Shown: piece by piece, positions 2,624 to 33,000 of the stretch
How the letters are laid out: each line of letters opens with the position of its first letter
How positions within the stretch are numbered: the first letter of the stretch is position 1
DNA from: a virus
Strand: one strand, 5' to 3'
IMG/VR virus record: IMGVR_UViG_3300021375_000011
Location: 32,001-96,000 of that record
Length of the DNA: 64,000 bases
Notes under the pieces: generated by a model
Databases searched by the model: none
Told to the model about the DNA's origin: nothing
What the model saw: only the letters and a program-made list of their open reading frames with translations
Program-made: the position numbers and the translations under genes

Positions 2624-5600
2624 TAGGTTTGTACTCCTACGCTAACGCTGGTAAGAGTTTGGCCACTTGCTAATGCAATACGCACTAGTATATTATTTCC
2701 TGTTGCATTTGAACTGTTTGCACTTCCTAGTGTCATTGTGTACGCACTGCTCAAAGCACTGCCGGTTGGTATTACGTCTGCACCAGTTAATGCACATCCG
2801 TTTCCGCCGTTACCGCCATTGCCTGTGTCTGCACCTGGAACTCCAGCACCTGCGTACTGTGTAGTGCCTTCTACCCATCCATTGAGTGTACTTGCACTAT
2901 CAATAGCAGTTCCTGGACTAGCAATCCATAAGCCTGTAATACCAGTTGAACTGTTCAAAGTTATATCAAAGTTAGCAACTGTTGCTCGTCTAAAAGCAAA
3001 GGTAAGATACTGTGTGCCAGATCTATTTGTATTCAAATCTGGACCGGCTGGCAAGTATCCACTGCTTAAATTTGTTGTAAAATGTTTGACTGTTCCCCAA
3101 CGTACTATTGCTTCTGTTGTTCCTGCAACTGTGGCCGCACCTGTAAATGCGTTTGCGGTATAAAAGTTCGTTGCACTATTATAACTTGGAGTGTCTGCGG
3201 CACTGCCAAATCCTGTTACACGCTTTCCATCATCATCAAACACGCTTCCAAGTGCATCTGCTACTGGAATGTTTTCTTCGTCAAATCCAGTTAAACTTGC
3301 ACTATAAACCTGTATGTACTTGTTGGTAAGGTTAACAACACTACTTGAACCGTTAACATTGAACATTTGTGCATCAAGATAACCTACTGCTCTTGCACTT
3401 CCATTTATGCTGACAATAATAGCACCTAGTGTATATGCACTGCCTACGCCTGTACTAGCATTTGGAATACCACCGGTAAGATATGTTGGTGAACCATCAA
3501 TATCACCATATGTTTTTGTCTGTGTGTTAATAAGACTGCCCGATGTGCTTTCTGCAAGTGTTCCTGTTGTTGCCTGCCAAGGGTTAGTCATATTTCTATA
3601 TGTTTGTCCGACAAAGTTTGTTACTGTTAAACCCGTAATAGTAACTGCTGGTGATCCTGTGTTGTAATAAGGCACACCTGAAATATATCTATAGGTTCCT
3701 GCAGTGCTTTCTGCTATTGTTGCACTGCCTTGTCCAACAGTTGGCACACTGGTCATGTCATCTTTTACAAATCCAACTGTGTTCGTACCGCCGGCAGTTG
3801 AGTGTATTAGACTTGTATCATTGTATCCTACACTTATTCCGCTGGTTGCCTTTGATACACGTGCATCAAATACTTTTGCAAATCCTGTTGGATATGTGCT
3901 GGCACTGATTTCGTTGTGTGCATCACCGTCGTTAACCACAACCAAGTCTGTGTAAGTTCCTGCGCCATCTCCGCCAGCAGTAAATGTTACTGCTCCACTT
4001 GCACTATTGTTAAATGTTGCAGTTAGTGTTCCTGAAATTGCAGTGTTTGCATCAGTCACTGTGCTTGTAACAATTGGATCAGCAGTTGTGTAACGTGTTA
4101 CACTACTACCATTTGCAGGTATGTTGCCACTACTTCTATCAGTCGCTCCTGCCGCCAATAGTGGAGAAGTGCCTTGGCTACCTGTTGACATACTAAGTGT
4201 TTTTGAACTTAGTGCTCCAGGTGCAGCTGGATTGGCTTTTATTGTAATAAAATTTGTTTTTGTTTCTGTGTCAGTTTGTGCAATCGTATCTGGTGTACCT
4301 GATGACACCAATGCTACTGTAAAACTTGCTACACTACCATAACTGTTTGTTATGTTGGCCGCTCCTGGTGTACCTGCTCCGGTTGTGATATCACCAGTTG
4401 TGTTGCCATCTCCAAACGTAAAATTTGTTGTTGTAACGTTTTGACTTGTGTTTTGAAATGTAACTAATCCTCGATCAGTTTCTACTCCTGATCTATAGTC
4501 TGTAAACAAGTAACCGTCTTGTGCATCATCGCCTGTTCTATCACTGACTGTTACTAACGTACCTGTGAAGATACTGCGTATGTCTGGTTCAACTGCTATA
4601 GCAATGTTGGCAGCATTGAATGGACTGCTTGAGTGTCCTGTTAGAGTAGATAGTTGAACTGCATAAGTTGCGGTGGTACCAGCGGCTTGTTGTCCACTGC
4701 TCAATGCGAACGTATGATTTAGAGTTGATCCTGGATTACCCGCTACACCTGATTGTATATTGACAGTGTTTACATTACCATCGCCCCACGTCCATCTGTA
4801 TTTTTGACCACTACCAAATATCGCAGTTGTTCCAGGATCGGTAGCAGTACTGTTTGTAAATTGTACAACACCACCTGAAGTTGCTTCTTGGTTAACCACA
4901 CGAACTACGTTGGCACTTGATAGAGTTGTTTGTGGAGTAAACACACTTATAACAGTCGGTGCACTTGTTACTGATACAGGACTAGCACCAGCAGTATTTG
5001 ATACACCGGTAAGCACAATGTTGTATTGTGTGTCTCCACCTGTGTTGTTATATGTATTACTTACAGTTGTAAAATCTGTTGCCGGTTGTACGTTTGCACC
5101 TTGTCCCCAACTTAGATCAAAACTGGTTGTAACAAACTGACTTGTGTTTGTTATAGTTGCAGTAGCACCTGTGTCTATTGTGCTATCATCAAGTGTAAAA
5201 CTTGGTATAGGCGTTGGAGTAAACAATGTAATATAATTTGTTCTTGTAAAACTGTCAGCACTTCCTTTTGCACCAGCGGATATGTCACCTCCATGTGTTC
5301 CGTTTGTATTTTTAGCAGTAAAACTTACTGTAAATTGTCCACCAGAGGCATTGTTATATGTATGTGATGGATTTTGCGAAGTTGAAGTATTGCCATCACC
5401 AAAGTTCCATTCAAAACCATTTGCATTTCCAATAAATGTACCAGTGAAGTTCACAGTTGTTGGCGAAGGTCCGCTGGTTGGTGTGCCTACAAAACTTGCT
5501 TGTCCAACATATTTGTTATTTGCAATGTTTAAGGCAACTTGGTTGAGATCGTCGATACCAGTTGTTACCTTTGTTGTGGTTGTCCAACCGTCATATGCAA

Positions 5601-15552: not shown

Positions 15553-17781
15553 CTATCTATGTGCAGCCTGTAATAATTCGGTCTGTATGTTTACGCTACG
15601 GGCCATTGTGGTTGCAATTGCATCCAGTCTGTTTAACTGTGCTTCTGCTAGATTATTAGTTGTATTTCCGGCCATAGCTTGTGAAGCTCCATCTATTTGG
15701 TTGCCAGTACCGCCAAGTGCAGATACCGATCCGCCTAAGTCCATAGCATTATACCCGCCAGCCGGACCTGCGTTTGGAACTATGTTTCCATTCATGCCAC
15801 TCATTAGCAATTCAGGCCCGTCTTCGCCGACTATATATGATTTGCCTGCTTGTACTGGTCCTCCGACTGCTTTTTTTGGTATGTTGGGATTTTTGTTAAA
15901 CAAACTACCCAACCATGAGTCGTCATCAAAGTCAAACATATCCTGCCCAAGACCTTCTTTACCAGCAAAGAATCCACCTAAACCTCCACCGACTCCGCCA
16001 ATTAATGCACCAGCAATCGCACCAAGACTAGAGGTAAGAGGTGCTAGAGGTCCGCCTATTAAACCTAGAGCTGCACCTGCAGCCGCACCTGCGGCTGCTC
16101 CGCCTAATGCTCCACCGCCTGTGGTGACTGCAACGTCACCTGTTTCTACAGTGTCTTTTGCTCCTACACCTGTTAAATTTCTTGCATATGCTTCTGCACC
16201 CATGCTAATCATCTTGTTGATTTCAACCATGGCTGCAGTCATACCTTCTGCCACTGTAGTTGCTGCGGTTCCCATAGCTGGCAACGCACTTAAAGTAATC
16301 TTGTTTACTTCTGTTGCAAAATTACGCATTGCTATTTGTCCGTCAACCAAACCTTGTGTAGCTGCATCTTGAGGGTCTAATGACGCTTTGGTCATTTCAC
16401 CCATTTTTGCTATTTCAGCAGTGGTCGGTACTACACGTTTGTTTGCTTCTAACATGCCTAATGCAATAGTATCAAACGCAGTACCTGCACCAACTATTTT
16501 GGCTAATGCACCAGGACCGCCCATGGCTTCGACACGGTCTTTCATTCCTCGATTTATTTCAGCAGTTGCTTCGGCAGCTGATATTTGTCCTTTTTGCAAG
16601 GCAGCTACTGCTTGTTGTCCTCGCTCTCCTGCGGCTAATAAAAATCCTTGTGCTTCATCAGTAAGAGCGTTTCCAGCCATGATGTCTTGGAAACCTTTAC
16701 CAATGGCTTCATTTTGTTTTGTGAGCTGAGCGGCTGCAAGTTCGACATTTCTACCAGCCTTTTGTCCAATTCGTTCATTTAAATCTTGTACAGCACCGTT
16801 GAAACGTGCATTACGTAATTGTCCTTGTAGTTCTTTCTCTGCTTCGTCAACACTGACACCTGTTAATCTTGCAAGTGTACTAAGTTCTTTTGCATAGTTT
16901 GCTGAACCTTGTGCTAATTCAGCACTGCTCATTTGATCTACTCTTGCAGTTCTTGCTTGTAATTTCAAATAGTTTGCAGTCATTTCGTTCTGTTGCTTGG
17001 CGCCAATTCCCATTGCTTCTAGTTCACGTCTAAACGGTGTCATTGCTTTGCTTATATTAGCAAATCTGTCTACACCGGTAGTTGCAGTTCCAAAAGCAAA
17101 CGCTAGTCCTTCAGAACTATTTTTTGTTACATCTGCAAAGTCTTTAAAACTAATGCCAGCACCAATTGCTTGATTGGCAAGTGAGGTCATTCCGTCAGCA
17201 CCAAGAGCACCTGACTGTGCAACCATTCTAAATGCACTGCCAGCGTTATCAAGTTGCGATGTTACTTGTTTTCCTATCTGTGCCGCTACATCAGCAGTTG
17301 CTTCTGCTAGAGCCGCGGCTGCCTTGCCAGCACCACTTACAAGACCGCCAATTACGCCACCTAGCACAGGAAGGCCTTTCAGTGCCTCACCGAGGCTATC
17401 AGTTACACCACCAACTGCCTTTCCAGCAGTCTTTAAAACACCAGCAGTTAAATCAATTGAACCATTGAGGCTTGAAAAACTTTCTTGTTGTTCTTGTACT
17501 GATGCTGCCGCTGCTATTGTACTTGACGCAAAGTTACCAAGATTTCTTACTGTGCCGCCTAACGCACCTGCAAATCTTGCTGCACCTTTGGTGTTTTTGT
17601 ACGTTTCATCTGTTTGTATTTTTTGTGCATCAGTTTGAGCCTTAGAACCTTTTGAAATTTTTTGCAATGCTTTATCAAGTCTATCGACCTCTTTTGGATC
17701 AACAGTTTTGTTGTTTTTCATCTCAAGTTGTAAAGCCTGTATAGCTCTGGTAAGTTCTTCGATGGTTTGGTCGTCTGCCAT
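15553..17781 (-). CDS. tape-measure-like tail protein
   Basis: 742 aa Ala/Gly-rich helical sequence, Gly-zipper segment, AVGGPV.AG..YIVGE.GPEL motif typical of TMP C-termini. Confidence 0.7.
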   Translation of the reverse strand: MADDQTIEELTRAIQALQLEMKNNKTVDPKEVDRLDKALQKISKGSKAQTDAQKIQTDETYKNTKGAARFAGALGGTVRNLGNFASSTIAAAASVQEQQESFSSLNGSIDLTAGVLKTAGKAVGGVTDSLGEALKGLPVLGGVIGGLVSGAGKAAAALAEATADVAAQIGKQVTSQLDNAGSAFRMVAQSGALGADGMTSLANQAIGAGISFKDFADVTKNSSEGLAFAFGTATTGVDRFANISKAMTPFRRELEAMGIGAKQQNEMTANYLKLQARTARVDQMSSAELAQGSANYAKELSTLARLTGVSVDEAEKELQGQLRNARFNGAVQDLNERIGQKAGRNVELAAAQLTKQNEAIGKGFQDIMAGNALTDEAQGFLLAAGERGQQAVAALQKGQISAAEATAEINRGMKDRVEAMGGPGALAKIVGAGTAFDTIALGMLEANKRVVPTTAEIAKMGEMTKASLDPQDAATQGLVDGQIAMRNFATEVNKITLSALPAMGTAATTVAEGMTAAMVEINKMISMGAEAYARNLTGVGAKDTVETGDVAVTTGGGALGGAAAGAAAGAALGLIGGPLAPLTSSLGAIAGALIGGVGGGLGGFFAGKEGLGQDMFDFDDDSWLGSLFNKNPNIPKKAVGGPVQAGKSYIVGEDGPELLMSGMNGNIVPNAGPAGGYNAMDLGGSVSALGGTGNQIDGASQAMAGNTTNNLAEAQLNRLDAIATTMARSVNIQTELLQAAHR

Positions 17782-17806
17782 TAATTAAAAGCCCGTTTTT
17801 TTGCCG

Positions 17807-17832
17807 TATAAGTACATTATCAACTGTATTTA
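17807..17832. promoter_or_regulatory. face-to-face divergent late promoters
   Basis: + strand TATAAGTA at 17807-17814 and - strand TAAATA at 17827-17832. Confidence 0.6.
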
Positions 17833-17845
17833 TGTAGGAAAAAAC

Positions 17846-18682
17846 ATGGAAGTAAAACAAGAGAATCCACTTGCGAAACATTTTAGGCAACCAGCGATTT
17901 ATATTAAATTACCAACTGGCGGTGCATGGAATGATGAAACAAGTATAAAGACTACTCCAAACCAAGAATACGCAGTTTATCCAATGACTGCACTTGATGA
18001 GATAAGTTACAGAACTGCTGATGCACTGTTCAACGGTTCAGCAGTAGCAGATGTAATAAAAAGTTGTATTCCAGATATTATTGATCCATGGCAGATAAGC
18101 ACTGCTGATCTTGACACACTACTAATATCAATACGCATTGCAAGTTTTGGTCATGAAATGGATTTCACAAGTAAATGTCCAAAGTGTGAGGAAACAAACG
18201 ACTTTGCAATAGATTTAAGACAAATATTAGAGCAGATCAAAATGCCGGATTTCAGCGAACCAGTCACTAACGGTGACATCACAATTTACTTCAAGCCGTT
18301 ATCTTACAAAGATCAAAACGACAATAACTCACAACAGTTTCAAGATCAAAAAATGTTAGAATCACTGCCAACTGCGGAGATTCCCGAAGCTGAAAAAATA
18401 GAAGCACTAAGGCAGGCATTTACAAACATTAGTGTTCTCACACTAAATGCAATATCTGATAGTATTGCTATGATAAAGAGTGGTGATGATGTTGTAGTTG
18501 ACAAAGAATTCATCAAAGAATATCTACAGAATTGCGACAATAAAGCATTTGATAAGATACGAAAGAAGATCGAAAGTATAAAAGAAAGTCAAGAAATCAA
18601 ACCATTGCTTATTGTATGTGCTGATTGTAAACACGAATACAATACACCTTTCACACTGAATGTTGCAAATTTTTTCGTATAA
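17846..18682 (+). CDS. gp26: baseplate hub / tail assembly chaperone (gp26-like)
   Basis: ATG at 17846 after AGGA; YIKLPTGG, PMTALDE, LISIRIASFG, CPKC and CADC Zn knuckles; ends NFFV. Confidence 0.7.
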   Translation: MEVKQENPLAKHFRQPAIYIKLPTGGAWNDETSIKTTPNQEYAVYPMTALDEISYRTADALFNGSAVADVIKSCIPDIIDPWQISTADLDTLLISIRIASFGHEMDFTSKCPKCEETNDFAIDLRQILEQIKMPDFSEPVTNGDITIYFKPLSYKDQNDNNSQQFQDQKMLESLPTAEIPEAEKIEALRQAFTNISVLTLNAISDSIAMIKSGDDVVVDKEFIKEYLQNCDNKAFDKIRKKIESIKESQEIKPLLIVCADCKHEYNTPFTLNVANFFV

Positions 18683-18729
18683 GGCTCTTAACGTCTACAC
18701 CTGAACAAATTGAAAAGATAATCTCAGAT

Positions 18730-18906
18730 ATGGACAACGAAGTTAAGAGCCTGAAGCAAGACTTGTTAAAAATGTGTTGGTTTATGCGTGGCGGAGTTAC
18801 CTATCAAGAAATTGTAAGTATGAGTGGCCCTGAACGTGAAATGATGGGTAAACTAATTAAAGAAAACTTAGAAACTGCAAAGAAAACCGGACAACCGTTT
18901 TGGTAA
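18730..18906 (+). CDS. gp51-like small protein, probably also the -1 frameshift extension of the gp26-like ORF
   Basis: 58 aa MDNEVKSLKQDLLKMCWFMRGGVTYQEIVSMSGPERE...QPFW, missed by the ORF track; its frame is open back through the slippery site at 18667. Confidence 0.7.
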   Translation: MDNEVKSLKQDLLKMCWFMRGGVTYQEIVSMSGPEREMMGKLIKENLETAKKTGQPFW

Positions 18907-19409
18907 TAGATCAAGTAAAAGCAGACATTGAACAGTGGTTGGTTAACTTTGTTGAAGTTCCGCACCCTGCATTAGGCAACTTTCCGCCTTGTCCTTTTGC
19001 CCGGCAAGCAAGACTACGCAACAAGTATGATGTTAGACTCGGAGATGATCTCGAACGTGATTTGTTTCTGTTTGCTAAGAAAAAATACTTAGGCAAAAAT
19101 GATGTGGTCATATATGCTTATCCTCCCGAGCAATATGATGATGCATACTTTAATTTTGTTGTTGATGTTGTTAACACTTCAAAAGGATTTACTAAACGTA
19201 ATCTTTTGGCACTTGCTGACCACCCAGACACTGTTGAAGAACAAAATGGTGTGTGCTTTAACATGGGTAAATATGCACTTGTACTCATACAAGATAAAAC
19301 AAAACTTCAGGACCATGCACGTATGTTAGCTCACCGAGGATACTATGATGATTGGGACGAAGAATATCTGCAAGAAATATTTGCACACAGAAAAGACCCA
19401 AGAAAATGA
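18900..19409 (+). CDS. hypothetical protein with PCPFAR motif (DUF1415/DUF6875-like)
   Basis: W...FV...LG..PCPFA...LADHP; TTG start uncertain. Confidence 0.55.
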   Translation: MVIDQVKADIEQWLVNFVEVPHPALGNFPPCPFARQARLRNKYDVRLGDDLERDLFLFAKKKYLGKNDVVIYAYPPEQYDDAYFNFVVDVVNTSKGFTKRNLLALADHPDTVEEQNGVCFNMGKYALVLIQDKTKLQDHARMLAHRGYYDDWDEEYLQEIFAHRKDPRK

Positions 19410-19843
19410 TATACGCAAGAATTAACCTAAGCGAAACTAACTATGAAGTTATACCTGAATACAAGAAAGTAAAACTTCCTCCAATAGTTCCAAACACACT
19501 AGAAGCAATCTATAATGCCTATTGTATTCATAAAAAGTTTAAAAGTGTTATGCCAATATTCGACGAAGAATACTATGACGAAAAAAATGAAGTATTTGGG
19601 TACTATGACAAGGAAGAAAAACTGGTTGCATTCAGTCTGTTTCGATGTTATAATAGTAAGAACGTTGAAGCAGTACAATTTGCTTGGGACTATGCAAACC
19701 CAGGATTGCGTTTAGGCATACGCAGTTTAAAAAACGAATGTGCAATATATAAAAAACGCGGTTTTGACTTTTTGTACTTAGGTCAAGCAGATGATTACAA
19801 AACAAAAATTGACGGATTTGAAATACTAGGAGGAAGATTATAA
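19406..19843 (+). CDS. GNAT-fold protein resembling the C-terminal domain of ATE1/Bpt aminoacyl-tRNA-protein transferases
   Basis: ATG at 19406 (ATGA overlap); LVAFS...EAVQFAWDY...LGIRSLKNECAIYKKRGFDFLYLG...YK....FEIL. Confidence 0.65.
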   Translation: MIYARINLSETNYEVIPEYKKVKLPPIVPNTLEAIYNAYCIHKKFKSVMPIFDEEYYDEKNEVFGYYDKEEKLVAFSLFRCYNSKNVEAVQFAWDYANPGLRLGIRSLKNECAIYKKRGFDFLYLGQADDYKTKIDGFEILGGRL

Positions 19844-20160
19844 TGAACGTTTACACAGTTTATGCCGATGTAAAAGAAGGTATAGATGCACGAACTTTTG
19901 TTGCTAACATGAAGCTTTTCCTAGATAAATTACCCACTATGCATGCCTACAGAATCACAAGAATGAAGCTAGGATTCCGTTCAATGGACTTGCCAGAGTT
20001 TAGAATTGATATGGAATTTGAAACCATGCAGGCACTGGATGATGCTATGAGTCATGTGGTAGCAAACGTAGATGATATTGAAACAGAACACGTAGGTTTC
20101 AATCAATGGGTAGATGTAGAAACCATACAACACTTTCTCTACAGAGACTATCCAGACTAA
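19843..20160 (+). CDS. DUF6614-like dimeric alpha/beta barrel protein
   Basis: 105 aa; YRITRMKLG...EF.IDMEF..MQALD.A...LYRDYPD; TAATG overlap with the previous gene. Confidence 0.55.
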   Translation: MNVYTVYADVKEGIDARTFVANMKLFLDKLPTMHAYRITRMKLGFRSMDLPEFRIDMEFETMQALDDAMSHVVANVDDIETEHVGFNQWVDVETIQHFLYRDYPD

Positions 20161-20756
20161 CACCAGCCATTAGAATAATCTTCTAACATAACCTGCCGTA
20201 TACGCAGTCGTTGTAGATCAGTGGGTCCTGCTCGCATGGTGTTGTCACGGCGATGATGTGTGTCCAATGCTGGCACACCAAGTATTCCTGCTATCTTATG
20301 TACATGTTTATAATTGTAGATATGTGTGTAGACAGCTCTGTTGGAACCAAGTCGTGCAGTGTTTGTTTCGCAGTGATCTGCTACGTTTGGATTTTGTCGA
20401 TACACTGCAATGTCTTTGAGAAAGTTGGTTAGACTAGGTGATTTAATCCACAAATTTTTATTTGCCGGATTGCTCATGGTATGATAGAAACCACTTACAA
20501 ACTTATCAATAGGATCACGCCACAGTGCTATGCGTATGTCTGCGTCTAGAAGCTCTGACTCAAACTCCTCAAATGATCTAGCCTTATTGTACACACCAGG
20601 TGCTTCGTTTTGAAAGTTTTGATAGAACTGTTCTTCTTTAGGATCAGCATTCCATAATGCTTGTGCTACATAACTCAACATAGTCGTAGTACTACATTTA
20701 TGATTACGCACTATTGCTATAGTTCTATTATTGTGCTTAAACTTTATCAATCCCAT
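20157..20756 (-). CDS. sulfotransferase family 2-like protein
   Basis: HKCSTTT (5'-PSB-like) and RDPIDKFVSGF (3'-PB-like); likely start ATG 20756, 5 nt after TAAATA at 20762-20767. Confidence 0.7.
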   Translation of the reverse strand: MGLIKFKHNNRTIAIVRNHKCSTTTMLSYVAQALWNADPKEEQFYQNFQNEAPGVYNKARSFEEFESELLDADIRIALWRDPIDKFVSGFYHTMSNPANKNLWIKSPSLTNFLKDIAVYRQNPNVADHCETNTARLGSNRAVYTHIYNYKHVHKIAGILGVPALDTHHRRDNTMRAGPTDLQRLRIRQVMLEDYSNGWC

Positions 20757-20770
20757 ATGCTTATTTAATA

Positions 20771-21260
20771 AGATGTCTAAAGACATCTATTGCTTCGCTT
20801 TGCTTCAGCAATATTTTTATTACGAGTGTAACGAAGTAATCAGTTATCATCTAGATAGTTTAGTCATACTTGCCCTACTACGGGCAAGTGAACTGAAAAG
20901 ATGTCATCATCTGAGTTATCCAGTCATTTGAATAAAGAGATTTACATTACTGTATCAGGGGCGGTTGTGCTGTACCCCTTACTCTAGCCTTGTCTCACAA
21001 CGGAGCGTTTGGTATACCCCTTCAAACAAAGTATACAAACGTATGGGTTGTATCTGTTTCACAGAGCCCATGTCATTCTAGCCTTAAGTTAGCCTTATCC
21101 TTTGACGCACCAGTTCTGTCGGCTACAACTCGCGTTGGCAGACCTCAAGGTGGATCGAGGTTCCTCGATCAAACGATGTCATATTAGCTTGGGAAATTTA
21201 AAAAGTTGCTCTGAGCATTGCTCTAGTAGTGCCTGTGTCATACTTGTTTATGACAATATA
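20771..21260 (-). ncRNA. candidate large structured ncRNA or replication-origin element
   Basis: by far the longest intergenic gap; 9 or more hairpins; GNRA loops (GCGA, GUAA) on the - strand; internal direct repeats. Confidence 0.55.
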
Positions 21261-21275: not shown

Positions 21276-21683
21276 TTACTCTTTTAATATGCCTTTTTGG
21301 TGTACACGGACCCGTATGTGCCCATTATACCATTGTTTTGATTCTAGTACTTTGTGTGTGAATTGTTCTCTTGCTTCAATGTAACTGAGTTCACTTTTAC
21401 TGCTACACCAAAACATGATTTCACGTTTAAACTTGTCTTTTCCTAATAGTTCCACATCTGCAGTAAGTTCATCACTACTTCCATAATAGTCTCGCCAATC
21501 GCTTTCAACTGTATACCTACGTTTGTTTGTTCTTCCCTTCAGAGGCTTCTTACTGCGTTTAAACTGAGTAAGTTTCTTGCCAATGTACTTTCTATCATTG
21601 GTAGTATTTGTTATCAAATATACAAACCCTATGAACTCTGCAGGAATTTCAGTTACTTCTTTATTTTTGTATAGCCATGTCAT
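21276..21683 (-). CDS. denA: stand-alone GIY-YIG endonuclease (T4 EndoII/DenA-like)
   Basis: 135 aa; GFVYLITN...YIGKK, Y.GSS, E..EQF, YNG. Confidence 0.75.
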   Translation of the reverse strand: MTWLYKNKEVTEIPAEFIGFVYLITNTTNDRKYIGKKLTQFKRSKKPLKGRTNKRRYTVESDWRDYYGSSDELTADVELLGKDKFKREIMFWCSSKSELSYIEAREQFTHKVLESKQWYNGHIRVRVHQKGILKE

Positions 21684-22771
21684 CAGTTTGTTTCATAGCC
21701 AACTGCATAATTTTCATCTACTACTTCGGCCCTGCATTTGAGACTGCACTCAACCCAGGTGTCCTTGTGCATACTGTCAAAAAACTTTTGCCACAGATCG
21801 TGATTAAGTACTTCTTCAAAACTCAAACCGTTTTTTATATTTAGAATCTGTCTATATTTCTCAAAAAAACTTTCTTTGTACACACTGGTTTTGTTACCAT
21901 AACTCATTGCATCATAAGGGAAACTAGTCCAACTGCATGGATGCAATGTGCCTTCTGCATTTACATACATGCCTCTATTGCCAATCTTACAAAGAGGTAC
22001 AATGCCGTTTATAGGTTTTGTATGCAAATATTTTTGCAAATTTGTTGTCATATAATGTTCTGTATTTTGTATTCTATTTTTTAATTTTTGAATGTGTCTT
22101 TCATATCTATCTGTTTTGCTTATGTACTCATTGCGTGGTTCTAGTGTATCCTTACCATAAGCACCATCATATTTGCTACTGAACTTTGTGCTTTTGGTCC
22201 ATTGTATACTGTCGCATCCATTTTGCTTTGCTAGGTCAATGATAGCACTGGTATGATCTTGATTAAAAGCAAAGTATATGGCTGCCCAGTTTACAAATGC
22301 CGAGGACTTATGCCCCATAATACGCATACCCTCCATGATGCTTTTGAAATTATTGTTTACTCTATACAAGTTGTTGCTTTCTTGATCATAACCATCCACA
22401 CTAAAGTTTATGGTATCATATTCGTTGCTGATATCTGCAAATTGTTCCCACCAGGTAGAAGTTTTATAACTTCCATTTGTGATTGTGTACACATGGCAAG
22501 TTGGTTTGATAGTTTTGATATATTCTACAATTTTTAAATAATCTTTACAATAGATACTGTCACCAACATCACCGCACATGGTAAAACGTTGTACGTACTC
22601 GCTGATAAAATCAGCAGTAAAAGCACTCTGAAATTGTTCCAAACTTAGTTCTTTGTTTAGCCAAGGAGTATCGGGCATTTCTGTTCTAGGACATCTTGGA
22701 CACTTCAAACTGCATTTACTGCTAGGTTCAATATGCCAATGATAAAATTGCCAACCGTACTTGTTATACAT
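21683..22771 (-). CDS. radical SAM protein with C-terminal SPASM/twitch domain
   Basis: CSLKCPRC; TNGS; FSVDG; C-terminal C...G.LHPC...C...C. Confidence 0.85.
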   Translation of the reverse strand: MYNKYGWQFYHWHIEPSSKCSLKCPRCPRTEMPDTPWLNKELSLEQFQSAFTADFISEYVQRFTMCGDVGDSIYCKDYLKIVEYIKTIKPTCHVYTITNGSYKTSTWWEQFADISNEYDTINFSVDGYDQESNNLYRVNNNFKSIMEGMRIMGHKSSAFVNWAAIYFAFNQDHTSAIIDLAKQNGCDSIQWTKSTKFSSKYDGAYGKDTLEPRNEYISKTDRYERHIQKLKNRIQNTEHYMTTNLQKYLHTKPINGIVPLCKIGNRGMYVNAEGTLHPCSWTSFPYDAMSYGNKTSVYKESFFEKYRQILNIKNGLSFEEVLNHDLWQKFFDSMHKDTWVECSLKCRAEVVDENYAVGYETN

Positions 22772-23294
22772 AAACTGTTATTTCCTTTAGATAAGAATAC
22801 TTAATTGCACAACCAATTGCTTGTGCAACTTTTTCAGCTGGTAGTTTATCACATTCTATATGATCAATCATTGGTGTATCTACTGGCCCTGGACTTACCA
22901 AATGTACTCGACAGTCGGAGTCCTCTTGTGCAATCTGACGAAATGTGTTTTTTAAATCGTTCTTATGAACTCTATATTCCCACGGCTCGTTGTCTTTACT
23001 GCGTTCAAGACGTGGATAATCTGTTATGTAACTTCCTATGTTTACAATAATATTTGGTTTGTTTCTCCATTCGCGATACAAACGTTCAAGCAGTCTACGT
23101 TGTGCCCTGTCTTCATAGGCATTATTAATTAAAACGGTGCAATTTTTTGCCACAATATCTGCAACTATTTCGTCAGACGATTGTATGTTCCATCCATTGG
23201 ATCTGCTATATCCAAAAATTGTGTCGTTATTGAAGTGTTCGACACATGCTTTGCCGATGCCACTGGTGTGTCCGGTGATTGCTATATTAGTCAT
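22764..23294 (-). CDS. short-chain dehydrogenase/reductase (SDR)
   Basis: ITGHTSGIG, INNA, YRVHK (YxxxK), PGPVDT. Confidence 0.85.
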   Translation of the reverse strand: MTNIAITGHTSGIGKACVEHFNNDTIFGYSRSNGWNIQSSDEIVADIVAKNCTVLINNAYEDRAQRRLLERLYREWRNKPNIIVNIGSYITDYPRLERSKDNEPWEYRVHKNDLKNTFRQIAQEDSDCRVHLVSPGPVDTPMIDHIECDKLPAEKVAQAIGCAIKYSYLKEITVYV

Positions 23295-30063: not shown

Positions 30064-33000
30064 ATGGCAAATCCGGCAGAGATCAACAGCGCCAGACTAA
30101 GTCAGCAACTTGAGATCAATCGTCAAAAGCTCGCAGTTAAAAGTTTGCAACAACAAGCTCGCACAGGAGCAAAGTGGAGCAATATTCAAGATGACTGGGA
30201 TACCAGTGATGAAAGCGTTAAACTTACACGTAGCACATTGCAAAATCTAAACGGACAAAACGAAGGATTTAAGAACAAACCAGGCTATGTTACTACAAAG
30301 GTTAAACTCACTAGAAATATTACAGAAACAAATGTGCTTGTAAACGATCTTCAAGTTGTAAAGGAAACAACAATTAAAAACGAAAACTCGTTTGAGGTAA
30401 CCAACAACTTGCCAAGAACTAGTGCTGGCACTATTGTTTCTAACGATGCTATTGCAGTTGAAAACACTGGTCGATTCACAACACCTATCGAAGGTAATAA
30501 TTTATTCCTTGACGACACTGTAGTGAAACCAGTTGTAGCAAGTCTAAATAAACCTACTAATGCAAGGTCAGCAAGTCTAAGTGGACTCGAAGATCAACAG
30601 TTAGGAGATGCCAAAGGGTCAGGATCAACTAGCACAGTTGGCGGCGGAAATACAGTCCGTAAAATTACTGCTACACAAAATCAAAATAGTGTACAAGCAA
30701 CAGGACAAGATATACAGAGGGCAACTGATGATGATTCAACCACTGTAGTGTCAAATAGCGTTGGTACTGCTAGTCAAGTGGTTGAAGGACGAACAGAAGT
30801 CGCAGCTGAATTTATGCAAACTATCACACCATCTCCAAACAAATTAGCAGGATTAGCAAGCCAAACATATGCCATATCGATATACCTAATGAACACTGAT
30901 GAGTATACACAGCTATTAGGCAGTGATAGTAAAGTTTTACCAACAGATCAACTGATAGTACAAAGTGGTGGAGCACCAGTGGGCCAACGTAACAAATTTT
31001 TTGATCTTGATTTTTACATCGAGAACTTAGAATTACTTACAACAATTGGAACACAAGGTACTGGTTCCCCTCACAATGTTGTAAAGCTATCGTTTGAGAT
31101 ACTAGAAACAAATGGCATTACGTTTCTTGAAAGACTTAGGCAAGCAGTTTGGGAGCATACCGGCGACAGATCACAAACCATTAATGGACAAAACTATCTT
31201 ATGGTGATCAGATTTTATGGTTACGATGATCAAGGTAATTTAGTAAGTAGTGCACCTGGACAAGAACCAAAACCAGAACAAACAAGTGATCCAAATGCGT
31301 TGGTTGAAAAGTTTATTCCGTTTCAAATAAACCAATTAAGATACAAAATTGCTTCTGAAGCAGTGATGTACACTATTGAGGCAACACCAACAATCATGAC
31401 AGTTGGCTATAGTACTGCACGAGGCACAATCCCATTTAATTTTCAACTTAGTGCAGTTGATGTTCAAACCTTGTTAAATGGCGATACAGAAATACAAACA
31501 ACTCAAAGACAAATTACAGACACTGACGATGACGAAGCCATGGAAGTTTCTGAACGTGCTCCGCCTGCAAAAAAAATTGGCTTAAAAGGAGCAACTATAA
31601 CACAAGGACTGGCTACTGCTCTAAATGAACATCAACAGTTGTTAGCAGAAAAAACTCCTGGTATGATTCCAGACAAGTACACAATTGAATTAGAAGACGT
31701 TGCTGGACTAAAAGATGCAAAAATGCGTAAGCAAGGCACTGTTGACAAACGTAGATCCCCACTGCAAGACAATCCAGATCCAAATCAAAAACTTAACCAA
31801 AAGAAGCAGAACTTTGATACAGATACTAAAAATTACAGTATAAATGCTGGTACACAGATTGTGCAGTTGATTGATCAAGTGATGAAGAATAGTACCTATG
31901 TAACTGCTCAACAAACAGTTGCGTTTGATGAAATAAGCAAAAAGGAAATTAAAAACACTCCAGTTAAAACTGTACAATGGTATAGAATTACACAAACTGC
32001 AACTCCTACAGAGTATGATCCTGTGCGTCAAGATTATGCATATGACATACACTACAAGATATCAAGGTACCAGATTAACACTCCACGTTCACCATACTTT
32101 CCGCCTGCAATGTACAGAGGTGTACACAAGTTGTACAACTATTGGTTTACAGGACAAAACACAGAAGTAATAAACTTTGAAGTAGAGGCAAATACCAACT
32201 ATCTTTCTCCTATTAGCAACAGTGGACTTGCTAACAATACAATCAATGCAAGGTTTGCTGAAAAACAGTTTTTTCAAACAAGTGCTGAAGAAAGCACACA
32301 AGGTGGACAAGGTGAAAGTACATTGCCAGCGGCACAACTTGCTTCTCGATTGTATTCTCCAGCTGATGTAGCAAAAACAAATATAGAAATAATAGGCGAT
32401 CCAGACTGGATTACACAAAGTGAATTGTTCTATACAGAATCAAATCTTAAACCATTTGAGCGTGACGGAAGTTGTAACATGAGAGCCAGTGAAGTACTGT
32501 TTGAATTGAGATTCAATCGTCCAACAGACTATGATTTGCCAACTGGGTTGACACCAGTGTTTAAAAACAATACAGGGTCAAGTGCTATTACTGGTGAAGT
32601 TAATCTTCCTGAAGAAAGTATTGTGTTTATGGCACAAAAAATTACCAATAAGTTTCAAAATGGAAAGTTTACACAGGAGATACTAGGCACTCTACGAGAC
32701 TTTGCTACTGCCATTGACAGTCCAGAAATGAAAAAAGAAGAGTCCAACAAAGTTGAAAAAGTTGCAACACCAGTTGCTCGACCAAGTGGTGTGCGTAGCA
32801 CAAAGAAAGAACCAGTGCCAACATACGATGATGCAGTGCAACGTAGAGCAAGAGGACTAGGTGTTGCGAATAATTCAGCACCGACAGGTGTAAATGAACG
32901 TCCTGACTATATTACAGGCAGTGGTAGGCCTAGTGGTTTAAAGCCAACTGAGAACCAAGGCAGTAAAGTAGCACCTACGCAAAACTACGATGATGCAATT

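Follow-up and report, generated by a model that had tools for sequence, protein, structure and literature searches.

The 64,000-nucleotide stretch analysed here (the window; positions 32,001 to 96,000 of IMG/VR virus record IMGVR_UViG_3300021375_000011) carries at 18900-20160 a cassette of three small genes, designated A, B and C, which form an accessory enzyme set of an uncultured marine giant phage and occupy a variable slot within its T4-like structural region. Gene B encodes a GNAT domain related to the aminoacyl-tRNA-protein transferases ATE1 and Bpt, and its near-constant partner, gene A, is predicted to encode a small haem mono-oxygenase. We propose that the cassette tailors arginine, with B transferring Arg and A then N-hydroxylating it, a reading that we consider quite possible and just short of probable. 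New here is the pairing, in phages, of a mini-transferase devoid of the ATE_N domain with a predicted mini thiolate-haem oxygenase, and the pairing is widespread; the enzyme kinds themselves, ATE1/Bpt and the thiolate-haem proteins AglA and P422, were known already. Literature searches found no description of a phage ATE-like or YqcI/P422-like gene.

Gene B is related to ATE1 and Bpt

Judged by its sequence, B is a true but distant member of the ATE superfamily that has lost both ends and consists of the GNAT domain alone. ATE_C was the sole Pfam family matched (E 9.4e-5, 23.4 bits), and the protein begins ~30 residues ahead of the ATE_C core. The family comprises 962 metagenomic proteins of ~142 amino acids at E<=0.01, with 122 cluster representatives among 1.84 billion at E<=0.001. 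At E<=0.01, ATE_C matched 23 of 30 short and 9 of 11 long forms, and it also matched nine of ten further longer relatives tested. Among the 30 and the 11, the sole match to any other family was one to PF13480. ATE_N found no match at E<=0.01 in any of these 30, 11 or 10 proteins. The motifs quoted for B in an earlier, sequence-only reading of this DNA (the original prediction) are all present (LVA, AV.F.WD, LG..SL..E, K..G, FLYLG, YK and E.L), as is PPCPFAR in A, and its account of B, a minimal C-terminal GNAT domain of ATE1/Bpt type that lacks the Cys-containing N-terminal domain, holds.

The long forms (225-268 amino acids) carry an extra, cysteine-free N-terminal segment of ~65 residues (ALEQGW...WYQxRSTRI), from which the conserved Cys of the N-terminal domain is absent, and a C-terminal extension (WWTGxEWSxD...RDS). 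They are found at 454 IMG/VR loci, are usually convergent with A, and are joined directly to the short forms by phmmer and by alignment. Two of them, P0191 and P0142, matched PF13480. When profiles were compared with the PDB, the long forms retrieved K. lactis Ate1 (klAte1; E 1.4e-8) and S. cerevisiae ATE1 (E 1.1e-6), with ATE1 filling five of six rows, and the short forms had ATE1 as their five best rows, weakly (E 0.005-0.05). B had no match in PHROGs, and tblastn against 50,697 GenBank phage records gave no homologue of B or C. A scan of 185,579 prokaryote genomes, made with two peptide patterns only, yielded 181 pattern matches and no B relative.

B thus shares with ATE1/Bpt the ATE_C GNAT core and the motifs WD, LG..S...E, YLG and YK, but is much shorter (145 versus ~235-520 amino acids), has neither ATE_N nor the Cys4 metal site, and scores under the curated cut-offs.

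Conserved residues point to arginine as the probable donor amino acid

Excerpts of the klAte1 study (PMC9351520) describe a pocket for the arginine of Arg-tRNA formed by Ser255, Ser273, Glu277 and Tyr289, in which arginylation requires the negative charge of Glu277, a position taken by Gln in the Leu-transferring Bpt; they place Tyr303 and Lys304 in the active site and report an involvement of Trp260 in tRNA binding. Residues were mapped onto B with HMMER alignments (chain numbering being that of the paper + 4) and the alignment of short and long forms. Ser255 corresponds to Ala/Ser/Thr89 of B, Trp260 to Trp94, Ser273 to Ser/Thr107 (Ser107 in the B of the window), Glu277 to Glu111, Tyr289 to Leu123 and Tyr303-Lys304 to Tyr131-Lys132. 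All 99 distinct B sequences, from 131 loci, have Arg5, Glu111, Gly126, Tyr131, Lys132 and Gly137. Such conservation favours an active enzyme whose donor amino acid is basic, Arg being the simplest choice. Since B does not vary at the acidic position that contacts the arginine side chain in Ate1, Arg-tRNA(Arg) would be the most likely donor.

True homology to ATE1/Bpt and the retention of donor-side and active-site residues would also suit an enzyme that arginylates or leucylates the N-termini of host or phage proteins, creating N-degrons for ClpS/ClpAP, with A and C as accessories; the N-terminal segment of the long forms, together with their C-terminal extension, might even form an acceptor site. 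In klAte1, however, the ATE_N residues Arg80, Tyr25 and Tyr87 help to form the pocket that receives N-terminal Asp/Glu (PMC9351520, in excerpts); none of them has a counterpart in B, and no B relative matches ATE_N. Furthermore, no protease or adaptor gene is linked to B, whereas its near-constant partner is oxygenase-like and an occasional partner is an amidinotransferase (see below), company that fits arginine tailoring better than proteolysis. The tagging of host proteins for ClpS/ClpAP, one of the roles suggested in the original prediction, is therefore not supported, and we regard N-degron formation as decidedly improbable. The broader alternative offered there, aminoacylation of small molecules or of proteins, may still apply.

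The predicted structure of B (predicted local distance difference test, pLDDT, 94.9) is one GNAT domain. Foldseek returned many GNATs at E ~1e-5, and an acetyltransferase ranked first. ATE1 gave the highest coverage and identity (TMq 0.69, 19-21%), and the tRNA-dependent FemX, L-PGS, MprF, FemX(Wv) and Sbb17 made up five of the top nine VIA rows, with alignments spanning B residues 1-145; single-domain acetyltransferases aligned from ~residue 17 only. FemX, MprF (L-PGS) and Sbb17 are larger proteins (286-402 amino acids or more), to whose C-terminal part alone the B model aligns, at 9-17% identity in the fold alignments and with no sequence similarity. The fold search, which had been proposed as a check on the original prediction, does not favour acetyl-coenzyme A (CoA) GNATs over tRNA-dependent enzymes: structure does not separate tRNA users from CoA users, but sequence does. 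None of the 30 short forms matched an acetyltransferase Pfam family. In GNATs that use CoA, the pyrophosphate is bound after strand 4 by the signature Q/RxxGxG/A, which the corresponding loop of B, PGLRLGIRS, does not fit, and the invariant residues of B are those that Ate1 uses for the arginine side chain and for catalysis. It is therefore very unlikely that B is an ordinary acyl-CoA GNAT whose resemblance to ATE reflects common ancestry only.

Gene A encodes a predicted small thiolate-haem enzyme

Protein A is predicted to be a small cysteine-ligated haem mono-oxygenase of the AglA/P422 'sandwich' fold, with Cys31 as the putative axial ligand. It is read as a haem oxygenase because of the combination of a fold match to AglA, weak matches to DUF6875 (P422) and the invariance of Cys31. 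The structural model (pLDDT 95.0) has four strands between helices, as in the thiolate-haem sandwich fold, and AglA was the sole standout in Foldseek, with a probability of 0.97 but an E of 0.03; nothing was found at E<=0.001. The Pfam match to DUF6875 (E 0.0095, 16.5 bits) covers residues 9-46 only, a stretch that includes Cys31. DUF6875 was matched by 16 of 24 diverse A relatives at E<=1 (best 9.7e-7), and DUF1415 by five. Across 90 distinct sequences of the family, Cys31, Ala34, Asp107 and Tyr149 never vary, and 89 have Pro32; the Cys-Pro pair lies in the family motif LGNxPPCP[FY]A, and an NxGxY segment recalls, on our reading of the sequence, the P422 substrate motif MxGxF.

As far as excerpts of the AglA study (PMC12866846) go, AglA is the prototype YqcI/YcgG haem enzyme, with a 'sandwich' fold, a four-stranded sheet and Cys44 as the haem ligand; its substrate is arginine linked to aminomethylphosphonate, which it hydroxylates at N-epsilon, rather than free arginine. 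Excerpts of a preprint (bioRxiv 10.64898/2025.12.11.692455) rename DUF6875 as cytochrome P422 and describe its members as thiolate-ligated haem proteins with a sandwich like that of AglA and a Cys in RxGxVCP. According to these sources, AglA and P422 are both built around a central sheet of four strands and have their axial Cys near the N-terminus. P422 enzymes are tryptophan hydroxylases and resemble A, whose haem is predicted, in being small, in the four-stranded sheet between helices and in the N-proximal Cys-Pro; they have 180-300 amino acids and full RxGxVCP and Trp-binding motifs, whereas A lacks these motifs and its DUF6875 matches are partial and below the cut-off. AglA is a YqcI/YcgG protein of 274 amino acids, whereas A has 169 and no YqcI/YcgG match.

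Other searches with A were uninformative. Its sequence profile retrieved only unrelated PDB rows (E>=0.033) and no haem enzyme, single-sequence PDB searches with A and C gave no match, and a profile search with the A family returned only unannotated close relatives, with no bridge to DUF6875 or YqcI proteins. The original prediction had described A as a DUF-type PCPFAR protein of DUF6875/DUF1415-like kind; the family call stands, on weak matches, but the probable identity of the protein was missed: A groups by fold and by these matches with the haem oxygenases AglA and P422. We also considered whether A might stand in for the missing ATE_N of B, and rejected the idea: long forms, which have an N-terminal segment of their own, pair with A as often as short forms do.

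Homologues of A in cultured phages are annotated as hypothetical proteins, at 3504-4031 in Puniceispirillum phage HMO-2011 (L134) and at 3480-3947 in Synechococcus phage S-SCSM2R (L135). In the latter, the gene lies beside a glycosyltransferase and a 2-oxoglutarate (2OG)-Fe(II) oxygenase, just ahead of the baseplate wedge genes.

Gene C is a DUF6614 protein

By its Pfam match, C is a true DUF6614 member (PF20319; E 3.2e-18; 66.3 bits, cut-off 25; residues 1-105 aligned to profile positions 1-106 of 116), in agreement with the family named in the original prediction. It contains no cysteine, and the Atlas clusters of its family are mostly viral. According to excerpts of a preprint (10.1101/2024.04.14.589459), a phage ORF (open reading frame) predicted as DUF6614 counters Druantia type I. 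PADLOC gave no match for A, B, C, a long-form B or the 209-residue neighbour of the cassette.

Genes A and B are linked across phage loci

Linkage was assessed in 133 loci, namely 52 IMG/VR loci with a short-form B, 80 of the 454 long-form loci (L054-L133, those fetched) and the record of the window itself; the set was not dereplicated, and A, B and C were called with iterated hidden Markov models on all ORFs. The 53 short-form loci comprise 26 with A+B+C, 24 with A+B, one with B only and two with A only, where the contig end cuts B. The 80 long-form loci comprise 22 with A+B+C, 47 with A+B, 11 with B only and none with A only. Altogether, 119 of the 133 loci (50/53 short form, 69/80 long form) have A in the flank of B, and 48 have C. 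The trio is thus found repeatedly among IMG/VR phage contigs, one of the checks proposed with the original prediction. At least five orders and orientations are seen (B>A< 38, B>A> 27, A>B>C> 26, C<B>A< 21, A>B> 5, and others), which indicates that the A-B pair is kept together through inversions and insertions. A stays beside B across 28-100% sequence identity, with short and long forms alike.

A homologue of L-arginine amidinotransferases (350-420 amino acids) adjoins B in 15 of the 133 loci, 11 of short form (L018, L020-L027, L029 and L050, just 3' of B) and four of long form (L066, L078, L105 and L133). L020 and L025 have three copies each, and the window has none. The protein matches AGAT (E 3.3e-10), HsvA, SxtG and StrB1 and keeps the GGxHC cysteine.

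The linkage also bears on whether there is a single pathway at all. A, B and C could be separate accessory genes in a hyperplastic T4-like slot, A being non-haem or having a substrate of its own and C serving anti-defence, as the DUF6614-predicted ORF active against Druantia would suggest. The slot does lie between conserved T4 modules (gp26-like, tape measure, SegE, gp46/47), where unrelated genes accumulate, and A and B can each occur alone, A in three cultured phages and B in 12 of the 133 loci and in a 91%-complete record. Nevertheless, the start and stop codons of the genes overlap in the window, and A lies beside B in spite of sequence divergence, two forms of B, inversions and insertions; shared location alone is insufficient to preserve such adjacency. 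We therefore consider independent roles for the three genes unlikely, if not strikingly so.

In L030-L049, a gene of 218 amino acids lies between B and A (e.g. L034, 5429-6085). It was examined as a ferredoxin partner of A and rejected despite a match to phrog_3704 'ferredoxin'. It is a common cyanophage/pelagiphage gene that 111 GenBank phages carry under the inconsistent labels PurM, phosphoribosylaminoimidazole synthetase or ferredoxin; because it has no Pfam match, the PurM and ferredoxin names look unreliable. It shows no relationship to the 2OG oxygenase found in S-SCSM2R.

A proposed arginine-tailoring pathway

The three enzymes that recur in the operon all have arginine-handling relatives, and two of them reproduce a known two-step logic, that of argolaphos biosynthesis in Streptomyces monomycini. 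There, AglC and AglA provide a tRNA-dependent GNAT-type Arg ligase and a small cysteine-ligated non-P450 haem enzyme that hydroxylates the attached Arg, the combination that is predicted for the phage cassette. Excerpts of PMC12866846 report that aminomethylphosphonate-Arg (AMPn-Arg) was prepared with AglC, arginyl-tRNA synthetase, tRNA, ATP and arginine and was then hydroxylated by AglA, and excerpts of PMC8976061 assign the tRNA-dependent ligases of the argolaphos cluster to the GNATs of PF13480. The two systems also differ: ligases of the AglC/AlpF type have ~340 amino acids and are filed under PF13480 (PMC8976061, in excerpts), whereas B has 145 and falls in ATE_C, and argolaphos is made by a bacterial phosphonopeptide cluster, whereas the phage cassette has no phosphonate genes.

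It is the AglC-then-AglA precedent that leads us to propose that B transfers arginine and A hydroxylates it. From the observed homologies, folds, conserved residues and gene linkage we infer which tRNA is the donor, that A binds haem, which step comes first and what is made, as follows. B would take arginine from Arg-tRNA and place it on an amine of an acceptor, which may be a small molecule or a protein. A would oxidise the product of B; the most likely reaction is N-hydroxylation of the guanidine on the arginine just added, and the electrons would probably come from a host ferredoxin system. The amidinotransferase, where present, may make or remodel a guanidino acceptor, and C may be an optional helper. 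T4-like phages of sea and fresh water might thereby make an N-hydroxy-arginyl (or otherwise oxidised or guanidino-modified) conjugate during infection, the product being an antimetabolite or signal, or a protein mark formed by arginylation and then hydroxylation; this further step is more doubtful than the cassette's chemistry, and we put it forward as speculative.

Several observations weigh against this proposal. The ATE_C score of B is below the curated 25-bit cut-off (22.5 bits when scored on DNA), and in the NCBIfam arginyltransferase equivalogs, whose cut-offs are 170-252 bits, B reaches 21.3 bits for NF002344 (cut-off 252) and 14 bits for NF002346. The fourth amino-acid-pocket residue of B is Leu, as in Bpt, rather than the Tyr of Ate1, so the donor could be Lys or another amino acid. 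Basic residues in helix 103-118 are present in the B of the window but vary across the family. The characterised tRNA-dependent transferases among the fold matches (FemX, L-PGS/MprF and ATE1) are all far longer than 145 amino acids, and a lone domain of this size may fail to bind tRNA or acceptor. On the side of A, the DUF6875 score of 16.5 bits is under the cut-off of 24.5, and the family motif shares only Cys-Pro with RxGxVCP of P422. A was found in none of five phage records with B only, one of them 91% complete, and HMO-2011, Roseobacter phage CRP-345 and S-SCSM2R have A but neither B nor C; no redox partner is linked to the cassette.

If the proposal is correct, the lone 145-residue ATE_C domain would be the smallest known aminoacyl-tRNA transferase. 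ATE1 and Bpt are thought to need their N-terminal domain, and about a thousand core-only proteins of this size would show the minimal unit that takes an amino acid off tRNA. The cassette would also give viruses their first assigned tRNA-dependent enzyme for non-ribosomal peptide bonds, along with their first assigned thiolate-haem oxygenase of non-P450 type. The structure of AglA (YqcI/YcgG) and the recognition of haem in P422 (DUF6875) both date from 2025, and a viral thiolate-haem enzyme of 169 amino acids would be the smallest member and easy to express. A tRNA- and oxygen-dependent modification of arginine in hundreds of uncultured aquatic T4-like phages would be new auxiliary metabolism, and its target, whether a metabolite, a host protein or a virion protein, is directly testable.

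Genomic setting of the cassette

The host record is a contig of 120,835 bases with an estimated completeness of 35%, figures that together imply a giant phage, and seawater metagenomes from many studies carry this stretch. The window is a T4-like structural region, and the phage setting assumed in the original prediction is borne out by T4-type gp23, the gp21 protease, the gp20 portal and a 742-residue tape-measure-like gene. A gp26-like T4_baseplate gene lies just upstream of the cassette, and SegE, radical-SAM and gp46/47-like genes lie downstream. A role in tail or baseplate assembly, considered on account of the gp26-like and tape-measure neighbours, was rejected; the slot is a variable one that has these conserved T4 genes beside it, and SegE and gp46/47-like genes adjoin it too. 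The ATGA and TAATG overlaps from which the original prediction had read three translationally coupled ORFs are confirmed (Table 1). The short ORF upstream of A is conserved 5' of A in the closest loci (tblastn matches in L001-L017).

Table 1. Genes of the cassette and the ORFs that overlap its two ends
Feature	Position	Strand	Description
Upstream ORF (gp51-like)	18730-18906	+	58 amino acids; overlaps the TTG start of A by 7 nucleotides
Gene A	18900-19409	+	169-residue PCPFAR protein; begins at TTG, overlapping the stop codon of the gp51-like ORF
Gene B	19406-19843	+	145-residue single-domain GNAT of ATE_C type; ATG inside ATGA at 19406-19409, overlapping A
Gene C	19843-20160	+	105-residue DUF6614 protein; ATG inside TAATG at 19841-19845, overlapping B
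Convergent gene	20157-20786	-	209 amino acids; stop overlaps the stop of C by 4 nucleotides

Promoter-like or terminator-like signals did not exceed chance between 17600 and 20900. The T4 late-promoter sequence TATAAATA has four matches in the window against 4.8 expected, none of them near the cassette, and neither the window nor the whole 120.8-kb record, itself 35% complete, contains a tRNA gene. Contigs of two marine metatranscriptome libraries belonging to one study (runs X15 and X16; 90-99% alike, with DNA carry-over possible) bridge the upstream-ORF/A, A/B and B/C junctions, a weak hint of expression of the cassette. These contigs cover parts of the cassette and its neighbours within 17700-20900 and place relatives of this phage in RNA libraries.

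The convergent gene that follows C has weak sulfotransferase matches (Sulfotransfer_2, E 0.011) and is conserved in the same place in 13 of the closest loci. Between SegE and the gp46-like gene, on the minus strand at 21683-23294, lie a radical-SAM/SPASM protein (362 amino acids) and a short SDR-like protein (176 amino acids), which are further accessory enzymes of the same variable slot.

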